Assembly (NCBI RefSeq): GCF_900545535.1
Contig: NZ_UQZN01000010.1
Length of the DNA stretch: 64,000 nucleotides
Strand: one strand, 5' to 3'
Source of the DNA: an uncultured Phascolarctobacterium sp.
GTDB lineage: Bacteria; Bacillota; Negativicutes; Acidaminococcales; Acidaminococcaceae
This document shows positions 5,774 through 27,690 of this stretch, in pieces. Position 1 is the first letter of the stretch; each line of letters starts with the position of its first letter. The translations under genes and the position numbers were made by a program. Under the pieces are notes generated by a model that did not search any database, was not told the DNA's origin, and was given only the letters and a program-made list of their open reading frames with translations.

Positions 5774-6766
5774 TTAGCCTCCTTCATCACCGCCCGGTAC
5801 CACTTTACCGCAAGCGGCAAGCTGCAGCGCGATGCTCTGTTCAAAATCATTAAAGTCATTATAAGCAAGCTCATGCACCACATAATCAGGACTGATCGCC
5901 CGCAGCAGCTTCTGCACTGCCGTATCAGAAAACGGCCTGTGCTGATCTATTTTTATTACATGCTTCATCCGCTCGATATTACTGCACTTATCATCATACA
6001 CACGCTTAAAAGTTTTTACATATTCACCGGAAAGCGAACAATTTAAATGTAAACCCCTGATCAGCTTTCTATCCTGACCCAAAGCCTTAACGATCTTTAA
6101 AATATACTCGATCCCGTCCCGTTCCAACTGCAGACTCGGATCAGTATTCATCAAATGCCCCGTGTCCAGCATAATACCAACATTCTTATGTGTGATCTTT
6201 TCAAAAAAAGCCCGCACCACAGCCGGATCAGTAAGCCGCAGCCCCGGCCACCACAAATTTTCAAATAATACCAGCACATCCTCAGGGATCTCATCAGCCA
6301 CCCTGTTAAAAACGGCAGCGGCAGCGGTCACGATCTCCAGATCACTGTGCTTAAACTCAAAAGTAAAAACCTCTTCCAGCGTACACTCAGCTATATGCCA
6401 CACCAGATACTCCGGTTTTTCGACCAGAGCCGACTTGATATTGGCCCTGATACTACGCAGCCAGCCCATACAATAAGTAGTGCCGTAATACTCCTGCAAA
6501 GCCTCTTTCGACGGAAAAAACCTCTGCAGCGTTTTTTTATCATTGCGATACATCGCCAGCCACATCGGCCAGTAATTCAAATGCACCCCCACAGCCAGAT
6601 GCTCAAAAGACTCAAAATAAGGCACGTTCCTGTAAACCATCAGCTCGATCCCATCAAGGCCCAGCCCCGCAACAAACTGCTCCAAAGTTTTACCGGTTTT
6701 TAAAACAGCCTTCTCCTGCCCCGGCACCACACAATAATTAAACAGGTGCTTCACCTTGCGCCTCAT
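5774..6766 (-). CDS. Xylose-isomerase-like TIM-barrel protein (sugar phosphate isomerase/epimerase family)
   Basis: 330 aa. Motifs such as IMLDTGHLMN and GLHLN are typical of the AP-endonuclease-2/xylose-isomerase TIM-barrel fold. Coupled to the downstream binding protein by a 3-nt gap. Confidence 0.45.
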   Translation of the reverse strand: MRRKVKHLFNYCVVPGQEKAVLKTGKTLEQFVAGLGLDGIELMVYRNVPYFESFEHLAVGVHLNYWPMWLAMYRNDKKTLQRFFPSKEALQEYYGTTYCMGWLRSIRANIKSALVEKPEYLVWHIAECTLEEVFTFEFKHSDLEIVTAAAAVFNRVADEIPEDVLVLFENLWWPGLRLTDPAVVRAFFEKITHKNVGIMLDTGHLMNTDPSLQLERDGIEYILKIVKALGQDRKLIRGLHLNCSLSGEYVKTFKRVYDDKCSNIERMKHVIKIDQHRPFSDTAVQKLLRAISPDYVVHELAYNDFNDFEQSIALQLAACGKVVPGGDEGG

Positions 6767-7063: not shown

Positions 7064-7210
7064 TCAAAATACATCATCACCACGCACCAGGATACACAGC
7101 CGCCAAGCTGCAAAACACAGCAAAACGCGACAATACCGTTTTTTTAAAACCAATAAAAACAGTACATATGTATCCACCTTGTGCATCGCAAGTCATCACG
7201 GATGTTAAAA

Positions 7211-7345
7211 CAGGCAGTTCTCCTGGCTTCGGATCATTGCTCGGCCACGCCTTCTCAGGTTTCCCCAATGGACAAATGCGGCTTCGCTCCCCGTTACAGT
7301 TGCGGGACAGCGCAGGTCTTACACCTGCTTCTCTATTAAGTCCTC
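7211..7345 (-). promoter_or_regulatory. Cobalamin (adenosylcobalamin) riboswitch
   Basis: Minus-strand RNA AAUAGAGAAGCAGGUGUAAGACCUGCGCUGUCCCGCAACUGUAACGGGGAGCG...GUCCAUUGGGGAAACCUG...GAAGCCAGGAGAACUGCCUG matches the conserved cobalamin-riboswitch core (GGUG.AA.UCC...GC.G.CCCGC.ACUGUAA, B12-box-like GYCAYUG, 3' CCAGGAGA.CUGCC). Confidence 0.8.
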
Positions 7346-7506
7346 CAAGCAATCGCTTTTGGACACCTGCTTTCTTACCATATTAAATTTTAAAATTTGA
7401 TAAAGTCAGCTTATTCATAATAAATTTTAAATAAACTATACAGTCATTATAAACTTCATGCTTTTTGTAGTCAAGCAAAAATTCTAAAATTCACTTTATT
7501 TCTTCA

Positions 7507-8427
7507 TCACGAAAAAATATTTTTAATTCTCTGCATCACAGACACAGTACCGCTTTTTGGGGCAGCTTCACTTTCCACCATCACGATCTCCTGCGCCGAC
7601 AAACCCTTTTTTACATATAAAACCGGCGTATTCTCCTCTGCAATCCCTTTTAAAAGCAACGCCGCCTTCGCCTGGTCAAAAGCCTGCTGCAAATTCTGGC
7701 CAAAACCGACGCTGGAATAAAACTGCGCCGCAAAAACTATGGCCGCCTCATCACCGATCTCAGTATTCATCCCAATAGCAGCCTCAACCTTCTCCACAAC
7801 AGCCTGCGCCTCCTTCTGCGAAAAACAGGCGTTAAAAAAAATCAGCCTCACCTTTTTAGATGCAGAAGCCACAGCGGCAGCCATCGCCTCTTTAGAAACC
7901 ATAGCCATATTACCGCTGCCGTCATCCAAAACGATCTCACCCTTTTCAGAACCATGTCCCGAAAAATGAATGATCTCCGGATCAGTTTCGTTGATCGCCT
8001 GCAAAATATCCAGCGACTGCACAGCCCATCGGCTGAAAAACTCGATCCCGTCGCGCCCCTCCGACCTGCGGATAGCATCAGTTATCGACCTGACTTCCTT
8101 ATCTAAAGCCAGCTTCTGCGTATCCTGCGGATTAGCCGCCAAAAACAAGATCGTCAGCTTATCAACAGGCTGCTGCGGCCTAATCGCCTGCTCGATCTCT
8201 TCCCCCACCTGCAAAGCGCGCTCACGCAGCAGCTGTGATTTTTGACCGCACAAAACGATAAAATCGTTTTCTTCCCCTAAAAGCTCTTTTTCCGTCCTGG
8301 CGATAGCCTGCTCGATCTCGCTCATCTTTTTGCAGGCCTCTGCCCGATCACTGCGCAGCTTCATCAGCTTCGCCTTTTTATTCATGATCGAAGCCTGAGC
8401 CTTCTCAAACTCTTTATCATTCATCAT
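7507..8427 (-). CDS. Coiled-coil plus CHAT (caspase-like) protease domain protein with an intact His/Cys dyad
   Basis: N-terminal ~90 aa is Lys/Glu-rich coiled coil. The C-terminal domain has IIHFSGHGSEKGEIVL (catalytic His) and RLIFFNACFS (catalytic Cys), the hallmark dyad spacing of CHAT/caspase-like peptidases. Start abuts the amidase stop (8427/8431). Confidence 0.55.
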   Translation of the reverse strand: MMNDKEFEKAQASIMNKKAKLMKLRSDRAEACKKMSEIEQAIARTEKELLGEENDFIVLCGQKSQLLRERALQVGEEIEQAIRPQQPVDKLTILFLAANPQDTQKLALDKEVRSITDAIRRSEGRDGIEFFSRWAVQSLDILQAINETDPEIIHFSGHGSEKGEIVLDDGSGNMAMVSKEAMAAAVASASKKVRLIFFNACFSQKEAQAVVEKVEAAIGMNTEIGDEAAIVFAAQFYSSVGFGQNLQQAFDQAKAALLLKGIAEENTPVLYVKKGLSAQEIVMVESEAAPKSGTVSVMQRIKNIFS

Positions 8428-8430
8428 TCA

Positions 8431-8958
8431 TCATGCCTCTACCTGCCTGAAATACTCGCCGATACCGGCCGCAATAGCGCCAGCAAATGCCGGCAGATCA
8501 TTTTCCAAAAGCTCCAGATCATCGTTATTATCAATAAAAGCCAGCTCCACCAAAATAGCCGGCATCACAGTCCGCCGCAGCACATACAGCCCCTGCCGCT
8601 CCTTACAGCCACGGTCTATCGTCGGCACCTTGCCCAAAATCTTCTTCTGCACAGCCTCACCCAAAAGCCGGCCCTGCCCGCTGTAATATAAAGTTTCCGT
8701 ACCACGGGCATTACGGCCCGGCGACGCATTGCAATGCAGCGAAACAAAAATATCAGCCGGCCAGTCATTGGCAGCAGCCACCACAGCAGCCAGATCATCA
8801 TTCTGCAAAAGCCTTACCTCATACCCGGCCCTTTTTAAAGCACGTTCCAACAAAGCACCAGCCTGTTTGGTAACATCCGCCTCACGCACATCATAATCAC
8901 TGTTCACCGCACCGCTGTCAACCGCCGGGTCGTGTCCCGGATTAACAAAAACCTTCAT
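8431..8958 (-). CDS. N-acetylmuramoyl-L-alanine amidase (Amidase_3 family), no signal peptide
   Basis: Amidase_3 motifs VNPGHD, DIFVSLHCNA and GTETLY with the E residue (LVELAFIDN). 175 aa and leaderless, like an endolysin-type amidase. Confidence 0.8.
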   Translation of the reverse strand: MKVFVNPGHDPAVDSGAVNSDYDVREADVTKQAGALLERALKRAGYEVRLLQNDDLAAVVAAANDWPADIFVSLHCNASPGRNARGTETLYYSGQGRLLGEAVQKKILGKVPTIDRGCKERQGLYVLRRTVMPAILVELAFIDNNDDLELLENDLPAFAGAIAAGIGEYFRQVEA

Positions 8959-9022
8959 CGCCCGCGCCCCCTTTCACCTGCATCAACTTTTATTACAATG
9001 TCATAATTCAGTATATTATTTA

Positions 9023-9577
9023 TTATTCTTCGCCTTCCAGCCGCAGCTGCGAAGCGGGAATATGCGTTAAAATCTCCAGCATGATCTCGGCAAAACTGTG
9101 CGCAGGCACAGGCTTCCACGCCGACTTTATATCGCTGCTTTGCAAAACAACGCCATTTTTACTGTAAACTGCATTGTGCAGCTCGCGGTACTGTTTGGCA
9201 CGCAGATTAAACAACAGCACCTGCGTACAATACTCAACACTGTCACCAGCTTTCAGCTTTTGGGCAAATACTTTGGTATCCAAATGTTTTTTAAGTTCCG
9301 GATTCAAAAAAACAGTTTTGACCTCAGCCTGCAGAATATTCCTGTCCTTATCGCCAAAAGCACCCCTGGTCATAAAAACGCTGTCCTTAGCCAGATAATA
9401 CCTGCCGGTCGAATTTTCCATAACCTCCGTCCAGCGGGCCGCCTCTTTTTCAGCCGCCGTCTGCTGCGGATTGACGCTGATCTGCCAGTCCATACCGCTG
9501 CCGCTTTCCTCGGCAGCGAAGCCCTGCGCTGCCATTAAAATACTTAAACTGAAAATAATTGCCGCAATAAATTTCAT
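9023..9577 (-). CDS. Secreted hypothetical protein
   Basis: SD GAGGT before MKFIAAIIFSLSILMAAQGFA (signal peptide). No recognisable domain. Confidence 0.5.
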   Translation of the reverse strand: MKFIAAIIFSLSILMAAQGFAAEESGSGMDWQISVNPQQTAAEKEAARWTEVMENSTGRYYLAKDSVFMTRGAFGDKDRNILQAEVKTVFLNPELKKHLDTKVFAQKLKAGDSVEYCTQVLLFNLRAKQYRELHNAVYSKNGVVLQSSDIKSAWKPVPAHSFAEIMLEILTHIPASQLRLEGEE

Positions 9578-9629
9578 CCTATTACCTCGCAACTTCCACT
9601 ATTTTGCAAATACTGCCGGCAGTTCAGCT

Positions 9630-10247
9630 TCAATTCAAAGCTGCTGCCTGCGGCATGGGCGCGCCGCTGCTGCGCAGACAGTATTTATCCGGGTCAATAT
9701 CATTCCTGAAGCGAAGCACCAGCTTACGCTCGCCTTCCGGCAGCGCCTGCCACACCTTGGCAAAAGCAAAACCGACAGGATTACCGAACCCCAACGCCAT
9801 ATAAAACGGCACCACAAATTTTTTACTGATTTCTGTTTCGCCACGCTGCTGCATACCGATCAAAACAGCAATTTTTCCCTGCGCCGCAGCCAGCTCACTG
9901 TCTTTAACAGCCCCGTTAAAATATACCAGCCTGATCTCATCCACAGCCTGCGCCATTTTTTTCAGCAAGCTGCTTTTACTGCACCAGTCGCTGGTCGTGC
10001 CGTCATCATCCGCAAACACAAAATCGCCTTTAGCCGTACACTCGCCGCAAAAATGCACAATGTCCGGCCGCAGGTTTTTAACAGCCTCTATCACATTATC
10101 AACCTTAACAGCACGCAAGGCAACAACTTCAAAACATCTGCCGCAGGGCTCCGCTGTCAGCTTCTGCTGCAGCAAGGCGGCCTCACCGCGCTCTGCCGGC
10201 GGCACAGCCGCCACCAGCAGTATTTTTATTTTCTGCATCGTTTCCAT
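9630..10247 (-). CDS. CHAT-like pseudo-protease; catalytically dead paralog of the 7507..8427 domain
   Basis: Aligns with the CHAT domain above (IKILLVAAVPP / LTILFLAANPQ; IVHFCGECTAKGDFVF / IIHFSGHGSEKGEIVL; RLVYFNGAVKD / RLIFFNACFSQ). The second His is E and the catalytic Cys is Ala. SD GGGAGGG before METMQKIK. Confidence 0.45.
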   Translation of the reverse strand: METMQKIKILLVAAVPPAERGEAALLQQKLTAEPCGRCFEVVALRAVKVDNVIEAVKNLRPDIVHFCGECTAKGDFVFADDDGTTSDWCSKSSLLKKMAQAVDEIRLVYFNGAVKDSELAAAQGKIAVLIGMQQRGETEISKKFVVPFYMALGFGNPVGFAFAKVWQALPEGERKLVLRFRNDIDPDKYCLRSSGAPMPQAAALN

Positions 10248-10280
10248 AACCATACACCCTCCCAAAATTTATGTTATTCA

Positions 10281-10373
10281 GCTGCCGCAGCCCTTTAGCA
10301 GGCTGCGGCACTTAAATAGCATAACTGCCGTATCAGCCGCCGCACAAGCGGCGGGTAGTGACGATACGGCAGT
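10281..10373 (-). terminator. Pair of GC-rich hairpins between the hypothetical gene and the CHAT cluster (terminator or attenuator)
   Basis: GCTGCCGCAGCC cttta GCAGGCTGCGGCA, and ACTGCCGTATC(agccgccgc acaa gcggcggg)tagtGACGATACGGCAGT. Confidence 0.45.
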
Positions 10374-10426
10374 AAAATAATGCTGAAAACTTAAGTTGGA
10401 AACAAGCTCATCACACAGCGATTTGC

Positions 10427-11752
10427 TTATTTATCCTTTCTTTCCAAATCTTCCGGACGAGCCAGACGTTTAGCGATCTTGGTAACGCTTGCTTTAGCAG
10501 CTGCCAGACCACGTGCAGCAGCAGTTCTTTCAATTACCATAGCCGCAGTATTGATGACATAACCAGTCGCAGTCCCATTTGCAAAGTCGCCTGCAGATTT
10601 AACCGTACTCAAAGCACCTGCAGCATCAATATCTAAAGAAGTATCAATGCTTTGGAACTTCACGCCGTCAACCAGATACAGGTCGTTGCCTTCGCCCGGC
10701 AGTAAAGCAAAGCATGGTGAAGCAGGAGAAACTGTAGCAGTCTTATATTTAGCGCCAGTGCCAAACCCGCCAGCCTGCAAGTCAGCCTCAGTAGTTTGAA
10801 TAACAATATAGCTATATTGAGAATACGCAGTATTATAATGAGCTGCCAACACATACGCTTTGTTATTAACAAAAGCTACATCAACAAAATCGCCACCAAA
10901 ATTATTTGGAATATCCGAAGCAGCAATAGTTTCTGTGAATAAAGGCGTTGCACCAGAAATATCAAATATTTCCAGTTTCGATGCAGGATTGCCATCGGCC
11001 TGCTGTGCGCCGCCAACAGAAGTTACGTAAGCATAATCTCCGTTAACAACTACACCGGTTACATTATTTCCAGCCAAATCCATTTCGGCAGTACCAGTGC
11101 CAGCAAGCGGGATCTTAACAATAGCGGACTCGCCAAAGGTGTATGTCCAACCACTGTTGGTAAAGCGTCCGAAAACTGCAATCAGATAAGCAGAACTGCC
11201 GCTGATTTGCAAATCAAGCCCATAGCCGGCGCCTTTCCATTGCGTAGTATCGCCAGCAATATCCGGCGTAAATTCATAAGCATAACCAGTCTCACTGAAA
11301 GCATCCGCCGCCATGTTATATTTGTAAATATAGCATTTACGGGTAGTAGGATTGCAATCGTTAGCAATCATATACATAACGCCGTCATAAACAACAATAC
11401 CATAAGGATTGGTAGTAGACCATTGCTGCACGCCGGTAACAGGCGAAGTAGCATTACATTGAGCCGTTTGCTTCTGCGACCAGTTGGAAGGATCGTAAAT
11501 ACCATACAAACCTCTGCCAGACTGCCCCAACTCGCCTACGCCGCTGTAATCATAGCTGTTGACCAAAGTACGCAAAGTACCGGTAATACTGATTGGCAAA
11601 ACACGTGGATCTGTAGTCATATTGGTACCGGAAATGATTTGAGTAACAGCTGTTTCCGTAGCCGTCACGCCAACAGTACAAGCACCTACCCAGCCGACGC
11701 TATACCCGCTGTTTACTAATCCTGCTGCTAATTTTTCACTTGCCATTTTCAC
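10427..11752 (-). CDS. Hypothetical 441-aa protein co-transcribed downstream of the autotransporter-TBDR gene
   Basis: Long ORF rich in Gly/Thr/Tyr (beta-rich). No obvious signal peptide. No terminator in the 123-nt gap to the upstream gene. Confidence 0.45.
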   Translation of the reverse strand: MKMASEKLAAGLVNSGYSVGWVGACTVGVTATETAVTQIISGTNMTTDPRVLPISITGTLRTLVNSYDYSGVGELGQSGRGLYGIYDPSNWSQKQTAQCNATSPVTGVQQWSTTNPYGIVVYDGVMYMIANDCNPTTRKCYIYKYNMAADAFSETGYAYEFTPDIAGDTTQWKGAGYGLDLQISGSSAYLIAVFGRFTNSGWTYTFGESAIVKIPLAGTGTAEMDLAGNNVTGVVVNGDYAYVTSVGGAQQADGNPASKLEIFDISGATPLFTETIAASDIPNNFGGDFVDVAFVNNKAYVLAAHYNTAYSQYSYIVIQTTEADLQAGGFGTGAKYKTATVSPASPCFALLPGEGNDLYLVDGVKFQSIDTSLDIDAAGALSTVKSAGDFANGTATGYVINTAAMVIERTAAARGLAAAKASVTKIAKRLARPEDLERKDK

Positions 11753-11875
11753 AACCTCCTTAAAGTTAACTTATCTGCGGTCTGTTCCCGCTGCCATTCA
11801 TTACTGTCTGTATTCAAACAGCATTTATATAAATCAGGTCAGTATCTCTGTACTGGCGCTGTATTATAATAAAAT

Positions 11876-14800
11876 TTAGAAACTATATTCCAGCGTTGTG
11901 TAATACATACGACCGGCAAGCGGATAGAAAGAAGCCGTCTTAGGTCCATAATACATACCGGTAGTGATGAAAACTTCCTTACCTTTATCAAAAACATCAT
12001 TGACGCCGGCGCTTAAACGCCATTTTTTATCAAATTTATATTTGACTCCCAAATCAACGATCGAATAAGAATCGCGCACGTCTATTGCATTGGCATCGCC
12101 AGAATCAGTACCACGCAAGATCTCCTGATCGGTATAACGGTATTCTCCGAAAACGTTCAGTTTGTCACCGGGGAACAGATAATCAACTCTGGCGCTGACG
12201 ACCCATTCAGGTACAAAAGATGCTCCGCCTTGCGCCCAGTTATAGTTATAACCCAAACCGTTACCCACTTCTTTACTTTTCTGCCATGTTGCTGCCAAAG
12301 CCAGGTTCAAGCGCTGCCATTTCATATTATGAGCCAGTTCAAGGCCATATGTTTCAATATTACCTGTCGGGCAATAACAACTTAATCCATCTCCGCCACG
12401 CGGTGTCCACAGTACAAGCTGGTTATTTGCTTTGCGCTGATACCAAGTAAGGATTGTATCCGTATCAGCTCCGGCCAGCTTGCCCTGCCAGTTCAGGCTG
12501 AAATCGAACTGACTGCCTGTTTCCCATAAGCCATTATCAATATTCCCGCCTTTACCGGCAACAGTAAAGACATAGTTTTGCCCAACAAAGCCGCCATCAC
12601 CAAAGATTTCGTAGAAGTTGGGATGCCTGTTATAAGTACCCCAGGTAGATTTAAAGCTCCAGTGGTCGTTGAGCTGCTTCTGCAGCGCCACGCCACCTGA
12701 ATACATCCAGCGGCTATCAGCATCGCCCAAATCACCAAGTCCTTCCATCTCTACTTTATCGGCACGCAGGATCGGTGTCAGCTTAAAATCGCCATCATCA
12801 TTGAGGGTAATAGTGTCCTGCAAGGTCAAATGATATTCACGGTTATTATATTTGGAAAGCATTTTTCTAACGGTTCTATTAACACCAGTTTGACTATCAA
12901 TTTGTTCCTGCGTAAGATCCCATCTGTTGCCATTAGCATCCATAGTTTCACGAGTATAATCCGCATTGAATTCCAGCAGATGGTTGCTGCCCAGCTTCAT
13001 CGCCGTATTCAGATTGCCGTTCCATTTTTTAGAACGCCAGGTTCCCCATAATTCACCCGGCAAATAATCGTTCTCATCCCTTTTTGCAAAAGGATCACCT
13101 GTTATTATTCCATTTTTTGTATCCTCTATTTGCCTGTAACCGCCTATATTAGTATAAGTTTTTTTGCTGTCCAGATAGGCAATATGCCACCCCAGATCAA
13201 GGTTGCCAAGCGTATCGCGACGCCCGATCAAAAATTCTTTATAATCAATATCCATATCAGCATCGAAATAGCCGGAATTTAAATAAGGAATTACATAGGT
13301 TCTATTTACTGCCCTGGCAAGCCCTTCATGCATCTTTTTCCAAACACCTTTAACTGTCCAGTGATCATCCTGCCATTTAAGCATGGCATTATTATTCTGA
13401 TAACCGTTACTTTGGCGTTTGTAAGTGCCTGCAAGTACATTATTTTGGGTATTACTGCTCTGCGGCCAAATATAATCAAAATCTCCATGCCAGATATCAC
13501 GGGCATAGGTAGCAAGCAGACTGCCGCTGCCAAGCGGCATGCTGTATTCATAGGTACTGCTGTAGCCGCCATAGGATTTGACGCCCTGGGTGATATGCCC
13601 GTGCCCTTCGTTGGGCTTTTTAGTGATGATATTGATAACACCGCCTAGTGGCGCACCGGCAAAACGAGCCGGTACATAACCGCGATAGACTTCGATGCGT
13701 TCAATATTATCAGCCGGGATCGCCGACAGATTGACTGCCGCATCACCGGTCAGGTTCATCTGCACGCCGTCCACATAGACGCTGACCTGCGCAGCCGTTG
13801 ACCCACGTACACGCGCTACAGTATAATGTCCGACGCCATTAAGCCGCTGCACGAATAAGCCAGGCACTCTGTCCAGAAGTTCCGGCAGGTTCTTCTGCTC
13901 ACCCTCGAATTGTGCCGGATAAATAACGCTGACCTGACCCGGGCTGAGATTCTTTTCCCAGTCGGGACGTTTGGCTTCAACAGTCAGCCCGCCCAGCTCA
14001 AACTCGCCCATACCGCCGGTGACTGTGCCGCTGACGCTGCCCGTATCATCACGGACAACACTGCTGCCCGCCTCGCCCATATCATAAACAGCCCGGCTGT
14101 CAGCACTTCCGCTTTCAGCAGCAACACTCTGCTGCGCCTGCTGCATCTGCGGCACCTGCACGTTGCCGACCTTGGGCGCCTGCCCCACTACCACGGTGGG
14201 CGCATTGGCTTTGGCAAAGCCGCCACCGTTTACAGACGGCTCCCCGCCTGAAGCATTTACTTTAGCCGCTTTGCTGCCGCCGCTGCCGAAACCGCCCCAG
14301 CTGAAGTCCAGCCCGCCGTTGATGCTCCATTCGTTGCCTACGTCGCTGCCGGTAGTTTTGATAAAATCAAGGTTCAAGGCAGCATTGGGTGAAAGTTTTA
14401 CTTTGCCGCCCACGTTCCATTCCCACCAGCTGTCGCTGCCGCCAACCGTTTCAACCAGTCTGTTTAAAGCCCCATAGCTTTGGTGCAGCTTTTGCCCGCC
14501 GGCAAACTCGTGTCCCCAGCTGACGCCGGCATAGATGTTGCCTTTGTCGCCGATATTTTTACCGGCTTTCAGCCCCAGCTTGCCAATGGCAGTATCATAT
14601 CCCTGTTCGTGTATGCCCAAGCCGTTAGTCAGTTTATAGCTGCTTTCATCCACATGGCCCACATACAGGGATACGGAAGGTTCCCAGAACCAATTAGAAC
14701 TAAGTTCATTGCGCTTGCCGTACTGCGCGCCGATACCGTAGGCCCAGGTACTGTTATCGCCTTTGACCTTGCCGATGCTGCCGTTGCCAGTATTACCGGT

Positions 14801-17074
14801 AAAGTGATAATCATTTTTAAGTTTAAAGGCGTTGACCCCCAGGTCGATAAAGTGCCCTTTGTCGCCCACCCAGCTGCTGTAAACGCCTACGCCATAGCTG
14901 TCCTGCTCACCTTTACCTGCAGCTGTAGTGCTTTTGCCGTCGATCTTGCTGGCATAAAAACCGGTATAGACCTTACCGCCATAGAATTTTTTGCTCAACA
15001 GCTTATCATAACCGACCTGAAAGCCGTTATAAGACTGGTTGGTGCTGCGGGCATAAGCCGCCTTGGCGTCAAATTTGCCGTGCCAGACATCGGCCCATAA
15101 ATTCTCGCGCAGCTCGCCGGCCAGTCCGCTCTCATCATGCTGGGGCCCATTGCCGCCAGCTTCCTGGCGGTTCAATCTTCCGCCGTGCAGGTTTTCGCTG
15201 CGGCGAAAGAGGCTGAGGTTATTGGCTTTGACAAAATTATTCTGCACCGTGCTGTTTTCGGAAACACTTTTACCGCTTTCCGCCATTTCACCCGTATCAG
15301 CATAAGTATAACCTTTTAAATACCACACTGTACCCTGCAAATTATCATAACCAATGATATTCCCCTTATCATCAGTTATGGCCTTGCTATCCGCAGTTTT
15401 AAAATAATTTTCATATTTGCCTACTTCCGGCGTGATTTCATAAACACTAAAAATACCGTCCGCCAAACTGGTTTGACCTGTTACTTCAAAATTATCAGCG
15501 CCATTATAAATACCGATCAAAGCATTAGGAACGATAATATTTCCAAGTTGATTCTTTACTTCATTCGGATTTTTCCATTCACCGAAAAGCGAAGTACCGT
15601 TGACTTCCGGTACATAACCGAGTTGAATATAGAGATTATTTTTAGCATCATCACTGCCATTATTTTTGGCGGCGTCTGTAATGTATACATTGTCATTATC
15701 ACGTACTGGAACGACCCCACTACCTCCAATAAGCGGTTCATAATTTTGATATACGCCAAGCCTGAAGGCAGTATTATCCGCCAGCTTCGCATCATTTACA
15801 AATAAGCTTCTGTTTATTTTGACCTTATTAGTAGCAATGGTTCCTTGTGATGTATCACTTATATATTCAACATTAATCGTATTAGCATTTCCTTCGCTGT
15901 CAGCGCCCTGCAGCACATACGGAGCTTGCCCATCAATACTGTTAGTATTAAGATAGCTCAAATCAATTACACTGCCAGATTCTGTAGTTAATTCACCAAC
16001 TGATATGACAGTCGTAGGAACATTCTCTATGGGTTTAGGACTGTCCAATTCATAATCATTATCCAGCTGCGTATTATCAGTAAAAGAAGAATCAACATCC
16101 GGATCACTCGCACCTATTGCTGTTTTACCGTCTTCAGTTACCCAATTTTTGTCACCCGGTGAATAATCGCCATTCAAATTACTGCTAATAGTTACAGCTC
16201 TGTCCAGCGGTGTCCACCTTTCACCAGCCGCTACTGACTTTTGGTCATAGGTATAACTTTTGCTGCCTCCAGAAAAAGAATCTCCCGTACCTAACTGAAA
16301 TCTTGTTTGTATACTCTCTATAATATCTGGCGAAGCAAAATTAAGACTCGAATCATTCATATAATTTAATACATTGGAGGCAGTAGTATTATTAATCGCA
16401 GCTTTTACCGTAGCTAACTCATCATCACTCAACTTAATATAACACATACTTGGCAGGTATTTTGTCATCCACTCTTGTATCTTCGCATCATCATTATTTT
16501 CAATATATCCATACAGCTCTCTTTGCGCATCAACAGTTGTCATTCCAGTATTTTCATTTAAAAAATTCATCATTTGCGTTCCGGTTATCGCTAAACAGTC
16601 CTTGCTAACATTTCCAACTCCAAGAACTTTATAATAATAAGCGCCGCTGTCAGCATCTCTTATTTTAATTGCAAATGCATTTGCACCCTCAGGAACAAAG
16701 CCTGTTCTCATCAGCGTACGCCATAAAATGCTATTCCATGAGTTTTTTGAGAAACTTGGTTTTACATTACTATTGGTCAATCCTTTATTGGCACCATCAG
16801 GATCAAGTCTAATAGTTTTATATACATTAACAATATTATTTTGCACTATACTAGAATCAGAAAAATTAATAAATGTATCTTGTCCGCCAACCTTATTAGT
16901 ATTGACAGCAGTATTATCATAGTATTGTACGGCATTTCTGCCCAGGGTTTCCGCCGCAAATGCACACTGGGGGGGGGCAAACGGTGCGATTACGCCTAAC
17001 GATAAGGCAATAGCCGCCGGTAATACTTGTAATGTTCTTTGCCTTCTCAAATTTTTCTTCATCATATCCTCCAC
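11876..17074 (-). CDS. 1732-aa fusion ORF: signal peptide, autotransporter passenger (~aa 45-620), autotransporter beta-barrel (~aa 621-926, ends FSW), Gly-rich periplasmic linker, and TonB-dependent receptor plug plus 22-strand barrel (~aa 1041-1732, ends TTLEYSF)
   Basis: Continuous frame with no stop. Extended signal peptide MKKNLRRQRTLQVLPAAIALSLGVIAPFAPPQCAFA. Translocator-like region LWADVWHGKFDAKAAYARSTNQSYNGFQVGYDKL...NLDFIKTTGSDVGNEWSINGGLDFSW. TBDR plug LPELLDRVPGLFVQRLNGVGHYTVARVRGS...VYVDGVQMNL...IERIEVYRGYVPARFAGAPLGGVINIITKKP with C-terminal aromatic F. Approximate nt split: autotransporter part 14297..17074, TBDR part 11876..14296. The start is a GTG at 17074 or the ATG pair just downstream. 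Confidence 0.7.
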   Translation of the reverse strand: MEDMMKKNLRRQRTLQVLPAAIALSLGVIAPFAPPQCAFAAETLGRNAVQYYDNTAVNTNKVGGQDTFINFSDSSIVQNNIVNVYKTIRLDPDGANKGLTNSNVKPSFSKNSWNSILWRTLMRTGFVPEGANAFAIKIRDADSGAYYYKVLGVGNVSKDCLAITGTQMMNFLNENTGMTTVDAQRELYGYIENNDDAKIQEWMTKYLPSMCYIKLSDDELATVKAAINNTTASNVLNYMNDSSLNFASPDIIESIQTRFQLGTGDSFSGGSKSYTYDQKSVAAGERWTPLDRAVTISSNLNGDYSPGDKNWVTEDGKTAIGASDPDVDSSFTDNTQLDNDYELDSPKPIENVPTTVISVGELTTESGSVIDLSYLNTNSIDGQAPYVLQGADSEGNANTINVEYISDTSQGTIATNKVKINRSLFVNDAKLADNTAFRLGVYQNYEPLIGGSGVVPVRDNDNVYITDAAKNNGSDDAKNNLYIQLGYVPEVNGTSLFGEWKNPNEVKNQLGNIIVPNALIGIYNGADNFEVTGQTSLADGIFSVYEITPEVGKYENYFKTADSKAITDDKGNIIGYDNLQGTVWYLKGYTYADTGEMAESGKSVSENSTVQNNFVKANNLSLFRRSENLHGGRLNRQEAGGNGPQHDESGLAGELRENLWADVWHGKFDAKAAYARSTNQSYNGFQVGYDKLLSKKFYGGKVYTGFYASKIDGKSTTAAGKGEQDSYGVGVYSSWVGDKGHFIDLGVNAFKLKNDYHFTGNTGNGSIGKVKGDNSTWAYGIGAQYGKRNELSSNWFWEPSVSLYVGHVDESSYKLTNGLGIHEQGYDTAIGKLGLKAGKNIGDKGNIYAGVSWGHEFAGGQKLHQSYGALNRLVETVGGSDSWWEWNVGGKVKLSPNAALNLDFIKTTGSDVGNEWSINGGLDFSWGGFGSGGSKAAKVNASGGEPSVNGGGFAKANAPTVVVGQAPKVGNVQVPQMQQAQQSVAAESGSADSRAVYDMGEAGSSVVRDDTGSVSGTVTGGMGEFELGGLTVEAKRPDWEKNLSPGQVSVIYPAQFEGEQKNLPELLDRVPGLFVQRLNGVGHYTVARVRGSTAAQVSVYVDGVQMNLTGDAAVNLSAIPADNIERIEVYRGYVPARFAGAPLGGVINIITKKPNEGHGHITQGVKSYGGYSSTYEYSMPLGSGSLLATYARDIWHGDFDYIWPQSSNTQNNVLAGTYKRQSNGYQNNNAMLKWQDDHWTVKGVWKKMHEGLARAVNRTYVIPYLNSGYFDADMDIDYKEFLIGRRDTLGNLDLGWHIAYLDSKKTYTNIGGYRQIEDTKNGIITGDPFAKRDENDYLPGELWGTWRSKKWNGNLNTAMKLGSNHLLEFNADYTRETMDANGNRWDLTQEQIDSQTGVNRTVRKMLSKYNNREYHLTLQDTITLNDDGDFKLTPILRADKVEMEGLGDLGDADSRWMYSGGVALQKQLNDHWSFKSTWGTYNRHPNFYEIFGDGGFVGQNYVFTVAGKGGNIDNGLWETGSQFDFSLNWQGKLAGADTDTILTWYQRKANNQLVLWTPRGGDGLSCYCPTGNIETYGLELAHNMKWQRLNLALAATWQKSKEVGNGLGYNYNWAQGGASFVPEWVVSARVDYLFPGDKLNVFGEYRYTDQEILRGTDSGDANAIDVRDSYSIVDLGVKYKFDKKWRLSAGVNDVFDKGKEVFITTGMYYGPKTASFYPLAGRMYYTTLEYSF

Positions 17075-17445
17075 ACCAACTTAAAAATTCCAGCATTTCT
17101 GTTTTGCCGTTTCTAAACATGATCATCGTTTAGAAACTGTCATTTTACAGCAGTATGTAAGTACGCGTCACTACTCGCATTTTTACCTGCTGCTGTAAAA
17201 TTCGGACACTTTCAGCAAAAAATAACGCCGCATTTTCTACCAGTCCATTCGGTGAAAGTGCAGCGTTTGTTTTTACCAAACAGTCTGCTCCGCTTTTCTG
17301 GTCGAAAATACTAAAATTTCCGCGCTGCTGGTTTCAGCGCATAATCATAGCGTCCGCAGAAATATTTGCCTGACAAAACGCCAAACCTAAATATCTCTGC
17401 AAAATTTTCTCCCAGTCTGTCTACGCAGGCTGTTCAAAAGATAGA

Positions 17446-17570
17446 ACCAGTCAGCACTCTGACTCAAGATCATTACTCCAGCATCCCTTAGTGAAAGGAC
17501 TGCAATGCTGAAGCTCCCTAATACAGTTGCGTGACAGCGCCGGATTCACACCGGACTTCCCTATAAAACT
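17446..17570 (-). promoter_or_regulatory. Cobalamin riboswitch (proximal copy of a tandem pair) upstream of the autotransporter-TBDR gene
   Basis: Minus RNA UAUAGGGAAGUCCGGUGUGAAUCCGGCGCUGUCACGCAACUGUAUUAGGGAGC...GCAGUCCUUUCACUAAGGGAUGC...GAGUCAGAGUGCUGACUGG contains the conserved core and B12-box-like elements. Confidence 0.7.
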
Positions 17571-17744
17571 TTGGATTTCTACATTCCAAAATACCCAGCT
17601 CTAATTTTTCATTTTTGAAATTGTCAATGGACACGTCATTTATTACTCCAGCACTTGTGACCGCAAGCATGGATGCCGCCACCCCAGCGGCACCACGCCC
17701 AAAGGTCTGAGTTGAGTGGAGTTTGCAGGCTATGACTGAACCTG

Positions 17745-17784
17745 CAGGAAATAAGAACTGCCCCCCTGCTAACGCAGAGGGGCA
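17745..17784 (-). terminator. Terminator hairpin of the distal riboswitch expression platform
   Basis: Minus RNA CUGCCCCUCUGC guuag GCAGGGGGGCAG followed by UUCUUAUUUCC. Confidence 0.5.
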
Positions 17785-17829
17785 GAAAAACTTGCATAAC
17801 AAGCGTATACCAGTTTTTCCAACTCTCTG

Positions 17830-17945
17830 TCTCTCGCAGTAGTTAGACTGTCAGGCTGATTGCTGGCTTTAGGGCTAAACCCCTTACAGCGCCGGGAGCG
17901 CAGCGGAATTGCACCGCTTCTCATTTTGTGATTACCACCTGATAA
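17830..17945 (-). promoter_or_regulatory. Cobalamin riboswitch (distal copy of the tandem pair)
   Basis: Minus RNA AUCAGGUGGUAAUCACAAAAUGAGAAGCGGUGCAAUUCCGCUGCGCUCCCGGCGCUGUAAGGGGUUUAGCCCUAAAGCCAGCAAUCAGCCUGACAGUCUAACUACUGCGAGAGACAG matches the conserved core. Confidence 0.7.
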
Positions 17946-17966
17946 ACATTACTATTTTCTTGATAT

Positions 17967-18001
17967 GTTAAATCATACAACTTACTTTTACTTATGTCAA
18001 C
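17967..18001 (-). promoter_or_regulatory. Candidate sigma-70-type promoter for the tandem riboswitch leader
   Basis: Minus strand TTGACA, 17 nt, TATGAT, ending about 10 nt before the first aptamer. Confidence 0.35.
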
Positions 18002-18156
18002 CTGTTTTTCAAGTATGTATACAATATTCTTTTTCGTTTTATTAAATATTTTCTAATGAAATTTAATTTATAAAAAACTAAATTGTATAAATCTAATATC
18101 AGTATTTTGTCAAAACTGCTTATGTACAGCCCGCTTATAACCATATCTTCCAGCGG

Positions 18157-19449
18157 CTAGTTTTTATAAAAAATTTTACCTGTCATTTTTAAATAAATAA
18201 ACTGTTTCAGCTGGCTGAATGTGCTTTGCATAAAATAAGCCCAGCCGTTGATGCCAGCATAGGTTTCCCTGTTAATATGCAGTCTGGCTGCAGGCATTGC
18301 CAAATTAAAATAAATTGTTTTTTCGATGTCGCCTATTTCTATCCGTTCTCTATCGGTGCCGCAAAAAATCTGATATTCATCGCTATCCAGTTGGGGCAAG
18401 TCGTCAGCATACTGCCACTTGTGATAATTGTTTTCATCTGCATTCCGGCAGCTGTTACTGATCCGTACAAAACATTTTTCCGGCAGCGGCAGATCATAGG
18501 CGGCAGCTTGTGCCAGGCTGCGGGCACAGCTGCTGCCAGCCGAAATAACCATCCGTTTGAGCTGCCAGTTATTATCATAGTCGCGCAGTGCTGCAAAGGT
18601 ATCAAAAATGCTGTCCTGAAAGATTTTTATTTCTGTCAGCAGGTAGTCTGCATTGCAGTCCAGATCCAGTGCTGCCGTTATTTTCCGCAGCCATTCAATA
18701 CTTTGCGAAAAGCCATAGGGTGTGTCGGCGATAATATATTTCTGCTGCAGCTTTTCCTGCAGCCATTCGGCAACGGGCAGTCCCAGTTCTTCATTTATTA
18801 CTACGTTCAGTTCTGCTTTGCCTGTCTTTTTTAAATCTTCCCAGTCTGTACCATTATCAAGCAGGCAGAGGTTTACTTTTACGCCTACACTTTTTAGCAT
18901 TCGTTTAAGTTCCAGCATATCGCCTTCCCAGTTTGGATAGCAGGTGCTGCTGCCTATCAGGTTGACTGATGAAGGTTCAGGTGCAGCAGGCTGCAGGCCG
19001 CTGCATTCAAGTAACTCTATCACAGCCCTGCTCCAGCCGTTCCAGTATTCACCGCTCAATCCTCCTGCATCCACGGCAATTATCGGGCAGCCCGGCTGCA
19101 GGTTTTTACAGACGCCTTTGATGTCGTCGCCGATCAGGCTTAATGAACAGCTTGTAAGCACTGCCAGCAAAGAATTTTGCGGGGATGCGCAGGCTTCTGC
19201 TATTGCCTGTTTAAGTTTTTCACTTACGCCGTATAGAAGGTCTGGTTCCAAAACTTCTGAGCAAAAAAGCCTTTGTTCATATTCTTTAACTGCGTTTGCC
19301 AGTTCGCGTTCGGCCAATACGGCGCACCAGCGGGGGCAGTTCATAACTACTTTACTGCCTGTAACGCTTAAAAAAGCAGAGGCCGCACCTGTCATTTGGC
19401 AATAGCCTTGGCAGGGCTGCCAGCGTTTTAATTTTTCATCTGTTTTCAT
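18157..19449 (-). CDS. Nitrogenase component-1-like oxidoreductase, NifK/NifN/BchB-like subunit (Oxidored_nitro family)
   Basis: 430 aa. N-terminal Cys cluster QPCQGYCQMTGAASAFLSVTGSKVVMNCPRWC. LTSCSLSLIGDD and CPIIAVDAGG motifs typical of NifK/NifN-type subunits. Overlaps the D-like gene by 14 nt. Confidence 0.75.
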   Translation of the reverse strand: MKTDEKLKRWQPCQGYCQMTGAASAFLSVTGSKVVMNCPRWCAVLAERELANAVKEYEQRLFCSEVLEPDLLYGVSEKLKQAIAEACASPQNSLLAVLTSCSLSLIGDDIKGVCKNLQPGCPIIAVDAGGLSGEYWNGWSRAVIELLECSGLQPAAPEPSSVNLIGSSTCYPNWEGDMLELKRMLKSVGVKVNLCLLDNGTDWEDLKKTGKAELNVVINEELGLPVAEWLQEKLQQKYIIADTPYGFSQSIEWLRKITAALDLDCNADYLLTEIKIFQDSIFDTFAALRDYDNNWQLKRMVISAGSSCARSLAQAAAYDLPLPEKCFVRISNSCRNADENNYHKWQYADDLPQLDSDEYQIFCGTDRERIEIGDIEKTIYFNLAMPAARLHINRETYAGINGWAYFMQSTFSQLKQFIYLKMTGKIFYKN

Positions 19450-21696: not shown

Positions 21697-21734
21697 CGAC
21701 GGTCATCTCCCTTCGTTCAAAATATACTCTTTAT

Positions 21735-23552: not shown

Positions 23553-23712
23553 CAGCTCTAACTCCTTGCCATTTAATGTGTAATACAGTAAAATCATATT
23601 AGTCACTATTATGCACGTTTTTTCTTTTTGATAATTTATTTAATTAGCTTTTGTTACTGTATTACTTATCTAATGATAAAGTATATAATGCTTATAGTGT
23701 CAAGGTGGTTTT

Positions 23713-24552: not shown

Positions 24553-24762
24553 TAAGGTGTACAATGATTGTATACTTTTTATATTTTGCTTATACTTGTT
24601 TTTAGCCGTAAAAAAAACTCTGAGTATTTTGGGACTATACCCCGAAAAACGGACAGTGAAATAAAACACCTCCTGTTGTAGAATAGAAACTACAGCCGGA
24701 GGTGTTGTTATGTCCTGAAAATATACCAGGGTTGCAAATTTTAGTGAAGAAGTGCTTAGACG

Positions 24763-24806
24763 AAAAGCAGCAGGCGGCGCCCAAGCGCTGCCTGCTGCTT
24801 TTTTTA
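24763..24806. terminator. Bidirectional Rho-independent terminator between the merR-like gene and the convergent TBDR gene
   Basis: AAAAGCAGCAGGC ggcgcccaagcgct GCCTGCTGCTTTTTTT. Confidence 0.7.
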
Positions 24807-26702: not shown

Positions 26703-26909
26703 ACTCAACTTCCTTTCACTACATTTTTATTATTGAAATAAAGACATTTCCTGTACTCATTCTTTATGACCGCACATTATTTGCCTTTACTTGCAATCAC
26801 CCAAAATAAAAATACCTTCTGCGCTAAGGCAAAAGGCATTGAACAGCTTAATTCAAAATAAAAGAAGCCGATAACATTACCTAACTGTCTCACGCAGCAG
26901 TAAAGTAAT

Positions 26910-27055
26910 TATCAGGCAGTTCTTCTGACTCAAGTTCATCATTCATCCAAGCCTTCCCAGATAAATTCCAGTGGCATATTTTGGATGAACTCACTTTTAC
27001 AGCGACGGGATCGTGTGGGTTTTACACCCAGCTTCTCTATTAAGACCTGTGTCAC
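26910..27055 (-). promoter_or_regulatory. Cobalamin riboswitch
   Basis: Minus RNA UUAAUAGAGAAGCUGGGUGUAAAACCCACACGAUCCCGUCGCUGUAAAAGUGAG...AUGCCACUGGAAUUUAUCUGGGAAGGCUUGG...GAGUCAGAAGAACUGCCUG, with a canonical GCCACUG B12 box. Confidence 0.8.
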
Positions 27056-27215: not shown

Positions 27216-27221
27216 TGTATT

Positions 27222-27659: not shown

Positions 27660-27690
27660 TCCTTAATTTTTGTTTATAATAAATTTATTA

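Follow-up and report, generated by a model that had tools for sequence, protein, structure and literature searches.

The caspase-like proteases of bacteria that have been characterised to date are parts of multi-gene immune systems (type III CRISPR, CBASS and gasdermin systems). One of these is SAVED-CHAT (PDB 8TL0), a short-subtype CHAT protease from the type III-B CRISPR/CBASS hybrid of Haliangium ochraceum, which becomes active on oligomerisation and has an abortive phenotype. In gasdermin and Craspase (TPR-CHAT/Csx29) pairs, a caspase-like or CHAT protease is likewise encoded beside a potential lytic effector. Other defence genes are embedded in type I restriction-modification loci, as are PrrC and RloC, which are anticodon nucleases and not proteases. 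In Bacteroides, the BtuB-BtuG and XusA-XusB pairs combine a TonB-dependent receptor under a B12 riboswitch with a beta-propeller protein, and pseudo-caspases such as c-FLIP keep the caspase fold after the loss of both catalytic residues.

The locus described here lies in a stretch of 64,000 nucleotides (the window) from an uncultured Phascolarctobacterium sp. (contig NZ_UQZN01000010.1). Its coiled-coil CHAT protein (CC-CHAT, ORF1) is of the same short subtype as SAVED-CHAT, but an N-terminal helical, coiled-coil-like region of ~85 residues replaces the SAVED sensor, the window region lacks a PCaspase substrate gene and any partner of the nucleotide cyclase, Cas10 or gRAMP kind, and the setting is a B12-uptake operon. 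TPR and Csx30 are likewise absent, the cluster neighbours give no gasdermin match in Pfam or PADLOC, and the candidate effector is an amidase (ORF2) without a removable inhibitory segment. Distant CC-CHAT relatives sit inside restriction-modification loci in the PrrC/RloC manner, whereas the window copy does not. ORF2 is a leaderless Amidase_3 protein of phage-endolysin size, but holin, spanin and other phage genes are missing from the window, and the amidase-CHAT pair is chromosomal and conserved across species. Unlike BtuG and XusB, the propeller has neither signal peptide nor lipobox, and its structural matches are of a generic kind; the receptor carries a fused autotransporter barrel, and the cassette adds a dead caspase-fold protein (ORF4). 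The latter resembles pseudo-caspases in its lost catalytic residues and in being under purifying selection, but is not consistently found with an active paralogue and keeps an invariant His/Cys/Cys/Cys set.

Layout and predicted regulation of the operon

From their sequence context, the four genes appear to form the tail of an outer-membrane uptake operon of gut Phascolarctobacterium that is controlled by cobalamin riboswitches. The first-pass annotation had described four tightly packed minus-strand genes, all of which are present (7507-8427, 8431-8958, 9023-9592 and 9630-10265), in the following arrangement.

7196..7474, minus strand: the following operon's promoter (TTGACT-17-TATAAT) and cobalamin riboswitch, which bound the cluster on its 3' side
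7507..8427, minus strand: ORF1, coiled-coil plus CHAT caspase-like protease, 306 aa (Pfam CHAT, PADLOC 'chat')
8421..8434, minus strand: 7-nt tandem duplication (ATGATGA twice) at the amidase/CHAT junction (sequence, strain comparison)
8431..8958, minus strand: ORF2, leaderless Amidase_3, 175 aa, catalytic domain only, endolysin-type (Pfam, PHROG 435)
9023..9592, minus strand: ORF3, exported protein, 189 aa as called (hydropathy, weak Adhesin_E)
9630..10253, minus strand: ORF4, dead CHAT, 207 aa, reading frame open to 10265 (BLASTP, AF2/Foldseek)
10270..10385, minus strand: conserved RNA element of two hairpins, in the gap that separates the propeller and dead CHAT genes
10427..11752, minus strand: p441, leaderless beta-propeller protein (AF2 model)
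11876..17074, minus strand: fusion of autotransporter barrel and Plug/TonB-dependent receptor, 1732 aa, first gene of the operon (NCBIfam)
17433..17957, minus strand: tandem cobalamin riboswitches upstream of the receptor operon (Rfam RF00174)

The RF00174 matches lie at 17433-17613 and 17837-17957. The tandem arrangement is repeated in seven related loci, and tandem riboswitches lie upstream at every Negativicute locus examined. A search of the intergenic gaps of the window operon found no promoter-like sites, and in two related loci (L056 and L034) the gaps before the amidase gene, of just ~25-44 nt, are too small to hold a separate promoter. The cluster appears to be co-transcribed with the upstream riboswitch-controlled receptor operon. 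The cluster had been placed between two B12-regulated operons, in accessory DNA bracketed by terminator hairpins. Rfam confirms riboswitches on both sides, but the cluster is seemingly the continuation of the upstream operon and not an island. The upstream hairpins are a conserved two-hairpin element and not a canonical terminator; downstream, where only the promoter and riboswitch of the following operon are found, there is no convincing terminator. Nor is the DNA accessory in the sense of sporadic, as the amidase-CHAT pair is fixed at the same position across the genus. All four reading frames are under purifying selection (dN/dS 0.08-0.12), and the locus is a recombination mosaic, with a dS of 0.125 for p441 and 2.1 for the dead CHAT gene against the same comparison strain. 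Beyond the cluster itself no defence genes were found in the window, and the neighbours are nutrient-uptake genes.

The encoded proteins

ORF1 is a member of the CHAT/caspase fold and, by sequence, a predicted protease. It matches Pfam CHAT (PF12770) over residues 80-258 with 36.2 bits against a cut-off of 24, as well as the PADLOC 'chat' HMM (1.7e-10), and a profile built from its orthologues matches SAVED-CHAT 8TL0 at E 3e-21. The His158/Cys201 dyad (H154-F-S-G-H158-G and N199-A-C201) is unchanged across 9 orthologues, its motifs HFSGH158G and NAC201FS align with HFIGHG and NACC of 8TL0, and dN/dS is 0.075. The N-terminal 90 residues, 42% of which are E, K, R or Q, give weak coiled-coil matches only; no SAVED or TPR sensor was found in ORF1, and the SAVED_CHAT model matches its CHAT part alone (E 0.0039). 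A signal peptide is absent and the protein is predicted to be cytoplasmic. The earlier description of a coiled coil joined to a CHAT domain with an intact dyad is in agreement with these results.

Judged by its sequence and AF2 model, ORF4 is a CHAT/caspase-fold protein without both catalytic residues. Pfam, which had been suggested as a check on both proteins, recognises ORF1 and not ORF4; searches of NCBIfam, PADLOC and PHROG with ORF4 were likewise negative. The fold is supported by BLASTP to ORF1 (31% identity over 124 aa, E 4e-18) and by Foldseek with the AF2 model (pLDDT 92), where the best match is SAVED-CHAT 8TL0 (E 9e-14, TMq 0.73-0.75), followed by caspases and separase, and a profile search returned 4325 short-CHAT relatives. 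Both proteins have the fold, and the proposed dead paralogue is borne out by both substitutions: the His site reads HFCGEC (His to Glu) and the Cys site FNGAVK (Cys to Ala). Every ORF4 orthologue has lost the dyad, with Glu, Asn, Lys or Ser in place of His and Ala, Thr, Val or Lys in place of Cys, while H67, C69, C72 and C91 are invariant and dN/dS is 0.12. Translation probably starts at the ATG at 10253, which has GGGAGGG ahead of it.

ORF2 matches Pfam Amidase_3 with 126 bits over residues 3-166 of 175 (profile positions 1-172 of 174). Its best match is the PHROG 435 endolysin family (182 bits); it scores far higher with endolysins than with the CwlD/AmiA-C families of the host, its identity to phage endolysins is at most 43%, and dN/dS is 0.11. 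Hydropathy reveals no N-terminal hydrophobic segment, so that the amidase is leaderless, as had been claimed. The accompanying suggestion that the protease activates this lytic effector finds no support: proteolytic activation was rejected because the Amidase_3 domain covers the entire protein and leaves no pro-peptide or extension to remove. In a PHROG search, no ORF other than the amidase matched above noise, and its neighbours are ORF3 and CHAT, with no holin. In most strains the amidase and CHAT genes are translationally coupled; of five close strains compared, four have an ATGA stop/start overlap.

The third protein, ORF3, was described as secreted, and a signal peptide is indeed predicted from its N-terminal hydrophobic segment MKFIAAIIFSLSILMAAQGFA (hydropathy). 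The probable start is the ATG at 9577, which gives ~184 aa, and its match to Adhesin_E is weak and under the cut-off. Paralogues of 33-35% or ~90% identity occur in 38 of 40 loci; ORF3 belongs to a paralogous family that is represented in all the receptor cassettes and is not specific to the four-gene set. With the PADLOC-DB v2 models, applied at the level of single models, ORF1 alone is recognised, by the generic 'chat' model; ORF2 and ORF4 have no match, and the one match of ORF3 (Specificity_I, E 0.029) is at chance level.

Two modules and their relatives

The co-occurrence comparison covered about 100 related loci, mostly metagenome contigs. In 51 of 54 close relatives the amidase gene immediately precedes CHAT, an adjacency that persists at 62% identity (L011/L069). 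The dead CHAT gene, by comparison, is present in just 7 of the 40 close loci carrying amidase-CHAT and occurs without any CC-CHAT in L097 and L096; its companions are always an AT-TonB receptor, a leaderless beta-propeller and the two-hairpin RNA element. With these counts, an obligate partnership of dead and active CHAT was rejected. The four genes are not co-inherited, because the dead CHAT follows the receptor cassette and is absent from most amidase-CHAT strains. The four-gene cluster of the first-pass annotation is therefore not a unit, the ORF3 family being cassette-wide as well, and testing the four genes as a single cassette would address the wrong unit. Based on gene content, we propose a module A, in which dead CHAT and exported ORF3 would be accessory genes of a swappable receptor cassette, and a module B, in which amidase and CC-CHAT form a constant gene pair. 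A dead-CHAT profile scan of genome contigs recovered one locus only, a sign of thin taxon sampling among isolate genomes, and the Pectinatus homologue (P0034) had no match in the contig index.

Outside the close relatives, the amidase is absent from Sporomusa, where active and dead CHAT paralogues are adjacent, from L009, and from 27 of 27 distant loci with sufficient upstream sequence. Some cassettes carry no protease at all (L097 and L098), and in L096 a leaderless papain-like Peptidase_C1 occupies the CHAT position. In no fewer than four lineages of Negativicutes (Phascolarctobacterium, Sporomusa, L009 and L011), CC-CHAT stands at the end of a B12-regulated receptor operon, and the intervening genes differ. 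The comparison thereby identifies a lineage in which CC-CHAT and an endolysin-type amidase are fixed inside a nutrient-regulated uptake operon, and a conserved pseudo-caspase that travels with an AT-TonB receptor fusion and a leaderless propeller.

Within this cassette, the receptor has an autotransporter barrel (residues 582-926) and a TonB-B12 domain (1030-1247) in NCBIfam, an architecture shared with L002, L009, L096-L098 and L100. The p441 protein, which its distribution suggests is the constant partner of the receptor, has an all-beta AF2 model (pLDDT 85, pTM 0.90) with generic propeller matches in Foldseek that include BtuG2 and XusB (TM about 0.4), and a conserved, charged C-terminal tail. 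In the 22 clusters of its family, the members that could be named or located belong to the Negativicutes. A VGAC motif was considered as a signal peptide or lipobox and rejected, as the Cys is unconserved and the N-terminus forms propeller strands in the model. The two-hairpin motif occurs in 10 of 10 sequences bearing dead CHAT and in 0 of 89 other loci. It has a folding z-score of -6.9, a hairpin 1 stem that is identical across three genera, and 10 pairs with compensatory changes, 9 of them in hairpin 2; an Rfam search gave no match at E<=1. The hairpin 1 arms are unlikely to be a DNA operator, because the spacing between them varies (about 12, 24 and 27 nt).

Distant CC-CHAT relatives (43-58% identity, other phyla) are solo genes without a receptor or B12 context. 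They lie between hsdS and hsdR of type I restriction-modification loci (L087, L088 and L094), beside hsdR (L092), near an HsdS-like ORF (L078) and next to integrases (L004-L006), and the family is found on 80 plasmid records. In the sole viral-contig locus (L099, IMG/VR), tail genes, a holin-like ORF and a 175-aa Amidase_3 are followed by CC-CHAT. A tblastn search of 50,697 phage records gave 0 matches, and a phage origin, with CC-CHAT as a phage lysis gene, was rejected because the family is nearly absent from viral collections. The contexts point to a widespread, uncharacterised family of horizontally mobile solo caspase-like proteases that occupies defence-type settings in other phyla. The restriction-modification, integrase, plasmid and prophage-lysis contexts support a conflict or abortive-infection role of the family. 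The abortive-infection reading suggested earlier finds support in the distant relatives and not as a four-gene module, and the function itself is inferred.

Explanations for the locus

Our preferred explanation, held tentatively, is that the genes are the 3' part of a corrinoid-uptake operon with two separable modules, of which CC-CHAT and the amidase act as an abortive-infection-type pair. CC-CHAT would be cytoplasmic and latent until a trigger, upon which its N-terminal helical domain would drive oligomerisation, as proposed by analogy with the filament activation of SAVED-CHAT, its closest solved relative. Proteins of the cell or of an invader may then be cut by the oligomerised protease. 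In this view the endolysin-type amidase would be an addition specific to the lineage, probably acquired jointly with CC-CHAT from the terminal part of a prophage lysis cassette, and may speed lysis after a breach of the inner membrane. The receptor is a possible entry point for phages, and its co-transcription with the pair would arm the latter whenever the receptor is expressed. Against this stand the lack of other defence genes in the window, the conserved hairpins ahead of the gene for the dead CHAT, which may terminate transcription, and the need of a leaderless amidase for a holin or membrane damage to reach peptidoglycan, with no holin at the locus. A defence role of solo CC-CHAT also has no experimental or literature support: our literature search on CHAT plus amidase, solo CC-CHAT defence and P. 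faecium expression found nothing relevant.

A possible, if rather doubtful, alternative is that protease and amidase serve corrinoid acquisition, either by processing a partner (e.g. the p441 tail) or by lysing some cells under B12 limitation, which would free the leaderless propeller to capture corrinoids as a shared protein, for import via the receptor. The recurrence of CC-CHAT at receptor-operon ends in at least four lineages, linked to riboswitch-controlled receptor/propeller cassettes, together with the substitute protease of L096, argues for a physiological link and not an incidental defence gene. The short intergenic gaps, a propeller that co-varies with an outer-membrane receptor in spite of having no signal peptide, and its weak likeness to the receptor-capping B12/siderophore binders BtuG2 and XusB point the same way. 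However, the relatives in other phyla have no such context, some cassettes are protease-free, the matches of the propeller are generic, neither a holin nor an export route was identified, and the position could reflect vertical inheritance and a place at a recombination boundary. We consider it unlikely that the pair is a domesticated prophage remnant without joint function, an endolysin and a moron gene left at a recombination hot spot and kept by position. The gene order of L099, the endolysin-like amidase and the mosaic dS values would fit such a remnant, but the strong purifying selection that acts on the two genes (dN/dS 0.075-0.11) and their catalytic residues, retention of the pair to 62% identity, the conserved ATGA overlap and the absence of other phage genes nearby do not.

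A single four-gene abortive-infection module, in which the dead paralogue regulates the active CHAT and the latter activates the amidase by cleaving it, is distinctly improbable and already largely refuted by the co-occurrence data. Both CHAT paralogues do stand in one gene string here and adjacent in Sporomusa, protease cascades such as SAVED-CHAT acting on PCaspase exist, and the amidase is leaderless and endolysin-like. But the dead CHAT is found in 7 of 40 close loci and twice without CC-CHAT, the amidase is missing from Sporomusa, L009 and the 27 distant loci, it is a bare domain without pro-peptide, and three of the four proteins have no PADLOC match. We give least credence to housekeeping wall turnover, in which a cytoplasmic amidase would recycle muropeptides and the peptidase degrade the released stem peptides. 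It would suit two proteins predicted to be cytoplasmic and an intact Amidase_3 domain, but recycling genes (permease, NagZ, Ldc, Mpl-type) are absent from all loci, the recycling operons with signal-peptide amidases envisaged at first pass were not encountered, and ORF2 is far closer to endolysins than to CwlD/AmiA-C. CHAT proteases are not known to recycle peptides.

More speculatively, and with little expectation that it is correct, the caspase-like protease and leaderless endolysin could be wired to B12 sensing, for sacrificial lysis that shares the propeller or for receptor-coupled immunity. Scarce corrinoid would open the riboswitch, and receptor, leaderless corrinoid-capturing propeller and latent lysis module would then be made. 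A regulatory or adaptor role specific to the cassette could fall to the dead CHAT, which has an invariant His/Cys3 site and a conserved RNA element of its own. Should the linkage prove functional, scarcity of a cofactor, the diversity of receptors and programmed proteolysis or lysis would be tied together in Phascolarctobacterium, an abundant human gut genus whose propionate production depends on B12.

A minor feature of the window is the amidase/CHAT junction itself, where the 7-nt duplication turns the ATGA overlap into a 3-nt gap, a change otherwise found only in L018 when compared with L001, L016, L008 and L019.

Products of the four genes

The first-pass annotation had described four minus-strand genes at 7507-10265 as a single abortive-infection-like module. 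The genes themselves are present as described, and the ORF, domain and fold results, together with strong purifying selection on all four (dN/dS 0.075-0.12), confirm that observation. The genes and the elements around them are as follows.

7196-7385: cobalamin riboswitch (Rfam), directly downstream of ORF1 and heading the next operon
7507-8427, minus strand: ORF1, coiled-coil plus CHAT protease (CC-CHAT), 306 aa
8431-8958, minus strand: ORF2, Amidase_3 amidase, 175 aa
9023-9592, minus strand: ORF3, exported protein
9630-10253, minus strand: ORF4, dead CHAT
10270-10385, minus strand: two-hairpin element, lying between the genes for the propeller and the dead CHAT
10427-11752, minus strand: p441, beta-propeller protein, 441 aa
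11876-17074, minus strand: autotransporter-TonB receptor fusion, 1732 aa (barrel residues 582-926; Plug/TonB-dependent receptor from about residue 1030)
17433-17613 and 17837-17957: tandem cobalamin riboswitches (Rfam), upstream of the receptor fusion

ORF1 is a member of the Pfam CHAT family (36.2 bits against a threshold of 24), and the PADLOC 'chat' model also hits it (1.7e-10). Its reported catalytic dyad, H158 within HFSGHG and C201 within FFNACFS, is intact and invariant in nine orthologues with identities down to 50%. A profile built from the orthologues gave one strong match to a solved structure, the activated SAVED-CHAT filament 8TL0 (E 3e-21), and the N-terminal ~90 residues, 42% of which are E, K, R or Q, match coiled-coil proteins weakly. 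These results support a predicted function of ORF1 as a caspase-like protease in the cytoplasm, of the SAVED-CHAT subtype. In SAVED-CHAT, filament formation switches the activity on; ORF1 carries a helical N-terminal region in place of the SAVED sensor. ORF2 consists of a whole Amidase_3 domain and no other part (126 bits; the match spans 1-172 of the 174 profile positions), and no hydrophobic segment was found at its N-terminus, in agreement with its description as leaderless. It scores far higher with the endolysin family PHROG 435 (182 bits) than with CwlD, an example of the host families (73 bits). Together, these results support a predicted role as a cytoplasmic endolysin-type amidase without a pro-segment. 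Since such a segment is missing, the proposal that the protease activates the amidase by cleavage is unlikely.

The N-terminus of ORF3 is clearly signal-peptide-like, as expected of the secreted protein it was taken to be. ORF4 matched nothing in the model libraries; it is nevertheless a paralogue of ORF1 (31% identity over 124 aa, E 4e-18), with the catalytic His replaced by Glu and the Cys by Ala. The top match of its AF2 model (pLDDT 92) is again 8TL0 (E 9e-14, TMq 0.73-0.75), with caspases, separase and DdvA ranking next, and the loss of both catalytic residues is kept in every orthologue, including those of Sporomusa and of an Avacidaminococcus-like locus. ORF4 is a caspase-fold pseudoenzyme lying outside the Pfam model. 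Around the former active site (HFCGxC...DxC), H67, C69, C72 and C91 are invariant, and this His and the three Cys could form a metal- or ligand-binding site.

Neither Pfam nor PADLOC revealed a SAVED, TPR, gRAMP, cyclase or gasdermin component among the four proteins, and three of the four lack a meaningful PADLOC match (none for ORF2 and ORF4, one at chance level for ORF3). These genes belong to no described CHAT-containing system. Caspase-like conflict proteases are known; what is unusual here is the operon context and the newly noted pseudo-caspase/receptor cassette.

A receptor cassette beside an amidase-CHAT pair

Downstream of the tandem riboswitches, the receptor fusion, p441, ORF4, ORF3, ORF2 and ORF1 follow one another on one strand, and no promoter-like sites were found in the gaps from the receptor fusion to ORF1. 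The strains become homologous only ~20-40 nt ahead of the amidase start codon, and the spacer that separates the amidase from its upstream neighbour measures ~25 nt in one related locus (L056) and 44 nt in another (L034), which leaves too little space for a promoter of the amidase's own. The simplest reading of the sequence is that all these genes would be co-transcribed from the riboswitch promoter. In all loci for which that region is available, the receptor has tandem cobalamin riboswitches ahead of it.

About 100 related loci were gathered and each was scored for the window's proteins; they are mostly metagenome contigs, and a scan of isolate genomes gave one locus. An uncultured Phascolarctobacterium is the nearest isolate-type record, and where near-identical contigs name a source, it is mostly a human gut metagenome. 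In close relatives, defined by a CHAT identity of 75% or more, the amidase is the gene immediately upstream of CHAT in 51 of the 54 loci with enough sequence and the riboswitch operon lies downstream in 42 of 42, whereas the dead CHAT occurs in only 7 of 40. Wherever found, the dead CHAT is accompanied by an autotransporter-fused receptor and a p441-type partner; most strains instead have a receptor that is 856-979 aa long and 29-58% identical, together with a 413-aa p441 homologue and a 184-aa ORF3 paralogue, to which some add an ORF3-type gene and a gene for 172-174 aa. Outside the genus, in Sporomusa termitida, the receptor fusion, p441 and dead CHAT are followed by CC-CHAT, and the amidase is absent. 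The dead CHAT likewise stands behind the receptor fusion and p441 in L097, where CC-CHAT and amidase are both missing, and in the Avacidaminococcus-like contig L096. Two Negativicute contigs read receptor-propeller-OmpH-TPR protein-small protein-CC-CHAT (L009) and receptor-propeller-amidase-CC-CHAT (L011). These counts and gene orders refute the view of the four genes as one unit and indicate two modules side by side: the dead CHAT and ORF3 are a cassette tail exchanged along with the receptor, and the amidase and CC-CHAT are a constant pair at the border with the next operon.

The receptor, propeller and small exported protein cassettes alternate among strains of one species (the 11876-17074 region compared with L001, L016, L019, L029, L034 and L056); the amidase-CHAT pair and the next operon are 82-99% identical across those strains, unlike the receptor (29-58%). 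Synonymous divergence spans a ~17-fold range along the locus: against one other strain, dS is lowest in p441 (0.125), intermediate in ORF3 and ORF2 (0.4-0.5) and ORF1 (0.9), and highest in the dead CHAT (2.1), and a mosaic is visible in this unevenness. The surface-receptor locus is a recombination hot spot. At the amidase/CHAT junction, four of five close strains compared have an ATGA stop/start overlap. A 7-nt tandem duplication (ATGATGA; 8421-8434, minus strand) at the amidase stop and CHAT start, common only to the window and L018, removes this overlap and leaves both reading frames intact.

Several further observations concern the surroundings. In L096, a leaderless papain-family cysteine protease (Peptidase_C1, 11381-12280) follows p441 and the dead CHAT where CC-CHAT would stand, and may be a non-orthologous replacement. 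In the contig L059 (5095-7081), Cus-like efflux genes and a regulator of the AraC type take the place of the CHAT 5' end and the amidase, with the downstream riboswitch operon still present; either the strain is rearranged or the assembly is chimeric. The riboswitch at 7196-7385 is preceded by a promoter (TTGACT-17-TATAAT), and the first gene behind it (5774-6766, minus strand) encodes a 330-aa AP_endonuc_2 protein, a xylose-isomerase-like TIM barrel. CbiR, the cobamide-remodelling enzyme of Akkermansia, belongs to the same superfamily (bioRxiv 10.1101/2020.09.02.280537), so this product may be a CbiR-like enzyme. A Peripla_BP_2 binding protein is encoded 3' of it, followed in L001 by ExbB/ExbD. 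The window holds at least five cobalamin-family riboswitches (at 7196, 17433, 17837, 26898 and 35006) and several more TonB-receptor-sized ORFs, and its B12-regulated uptake loci, noted for the interval 17433-35130, are unusually dense.

Receptor fusion, propeller and two-hairpin element

The receptor fusion begins with a passenger-like region ahead of the autotransporter beta-barrel, and the same fusion occurs in Sporomusa and in the related loci L009, L096-L098 and L100. To our knowledge, an autotransporter barrel fused to a Plug/TonB-dependent receptor has no previous description. Its partner p441 is confidently modelled as an all-beta propeller (pLDDT 85, pTM 0.90), and among its generic or weak fold matches are XusB and BtuG2, a B12 binder. 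It has no signal peptide, bears a charged, conserved C-terminal tail (KxAKRLARPEDLE) and is a constant neighbour of the B12-regulated receptor; its family comprises only 22 clusters, and the named or located members are Negativicutes.

Between p441 and ORF4, the intergenic sequence forms two predicted GC-rich hairpins (z-score -6.9), and the relatives carry the element at these positions.

L002: 5075-5175
L096: 10430-10520
L097: 10375-10500
L008: 9864-9985

All 10 sequences bearing a dead CHAT have the motif, and none of the 89 other loci does. The basal stem of hairpin 1 (ACUGCCGU[A/G]UCG...) is sequence-identical in three genera, whose flanking proteins are ~50% identical, and a comparison of three independent lineages shows compensatory changes at ten pairs, nine of them within hairpin 2. 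The element has no Rfam match; candidate roles are terminator, attenuator or 5' UTR regulator.

Possible roles of CC-CHAT and the amidase

We tentatively propose that the amidase-CC-CHAT pair may be a conflict or abortive-infection-type module expressed with the receptor, a reading we favour while holding it to be somewhat short of an even chance. The CC-CHAT would act as the effector responding to a trigger, and the amidase, produced jointly with it and the receptor, would aid lysis by speeding it after the membrane is compromised. The wider family provides the background to this proposal. ORF1 has more than 1400 relatives, and proteins of ~350 aa with an ORF1-like helical N-terminus and a CHAT domain 43-58% identical are found in Stenotrophomonas, Paenibacillus, Leptospira, clostridia, Shewanella and others. 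The distant members are solo genes, and no recurrent neighbour gene family was found across their loci. CC-CHAT separates hsdS from hsdR within type I R-M operons, as verified by Pfam, in L087 (1750-7177), L088 and L094, adjoins hsdR in L092 and is near an HsdS-like ORF in L078 (Pfam). It also occurs beside tyrosine integrases, with TIR proteins close by, and on 80 plasmid records, the Shewanella plasmid copy adjoining HNH and DUF2326 genes. Such R-M, integrase, plasmid and viral-contig settings are the usual signature of conflict genes.

In the main rival account, which is less probable and which we regard as rather unlikely, the proteases and the amidase would work for the uptake system itself when B12 is limiting. 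In its favour, CC-CHAT is tied to receptor/propeller cassettes in four lineages with differing intervening genes, a papain-like protease substitutes for it in L096, and the constant partner of the receptor is the leaderless propeller.

An amidase lies directly upstream of CC-CHAT in 0 of 27 distant loci with enough upstream sequence, which restricts the partnership to the Phascolarctobacterium-like clade. No paper characterising the CC-CHAT family or the CHAT-amidase pair was found in the literature, and a search of 50,697 phage records returned no CC-CHAT. In one prophage-like IMG/VR contig (L099, 4733-6837), tail genes, an 84-aa holin-like ORF and a 175-aa Amidase_3 endolysin precede a CC-CHAT that is 41% identical to ORF1, and the amidase-CHAT pairing may derive from a prophage end of this type.
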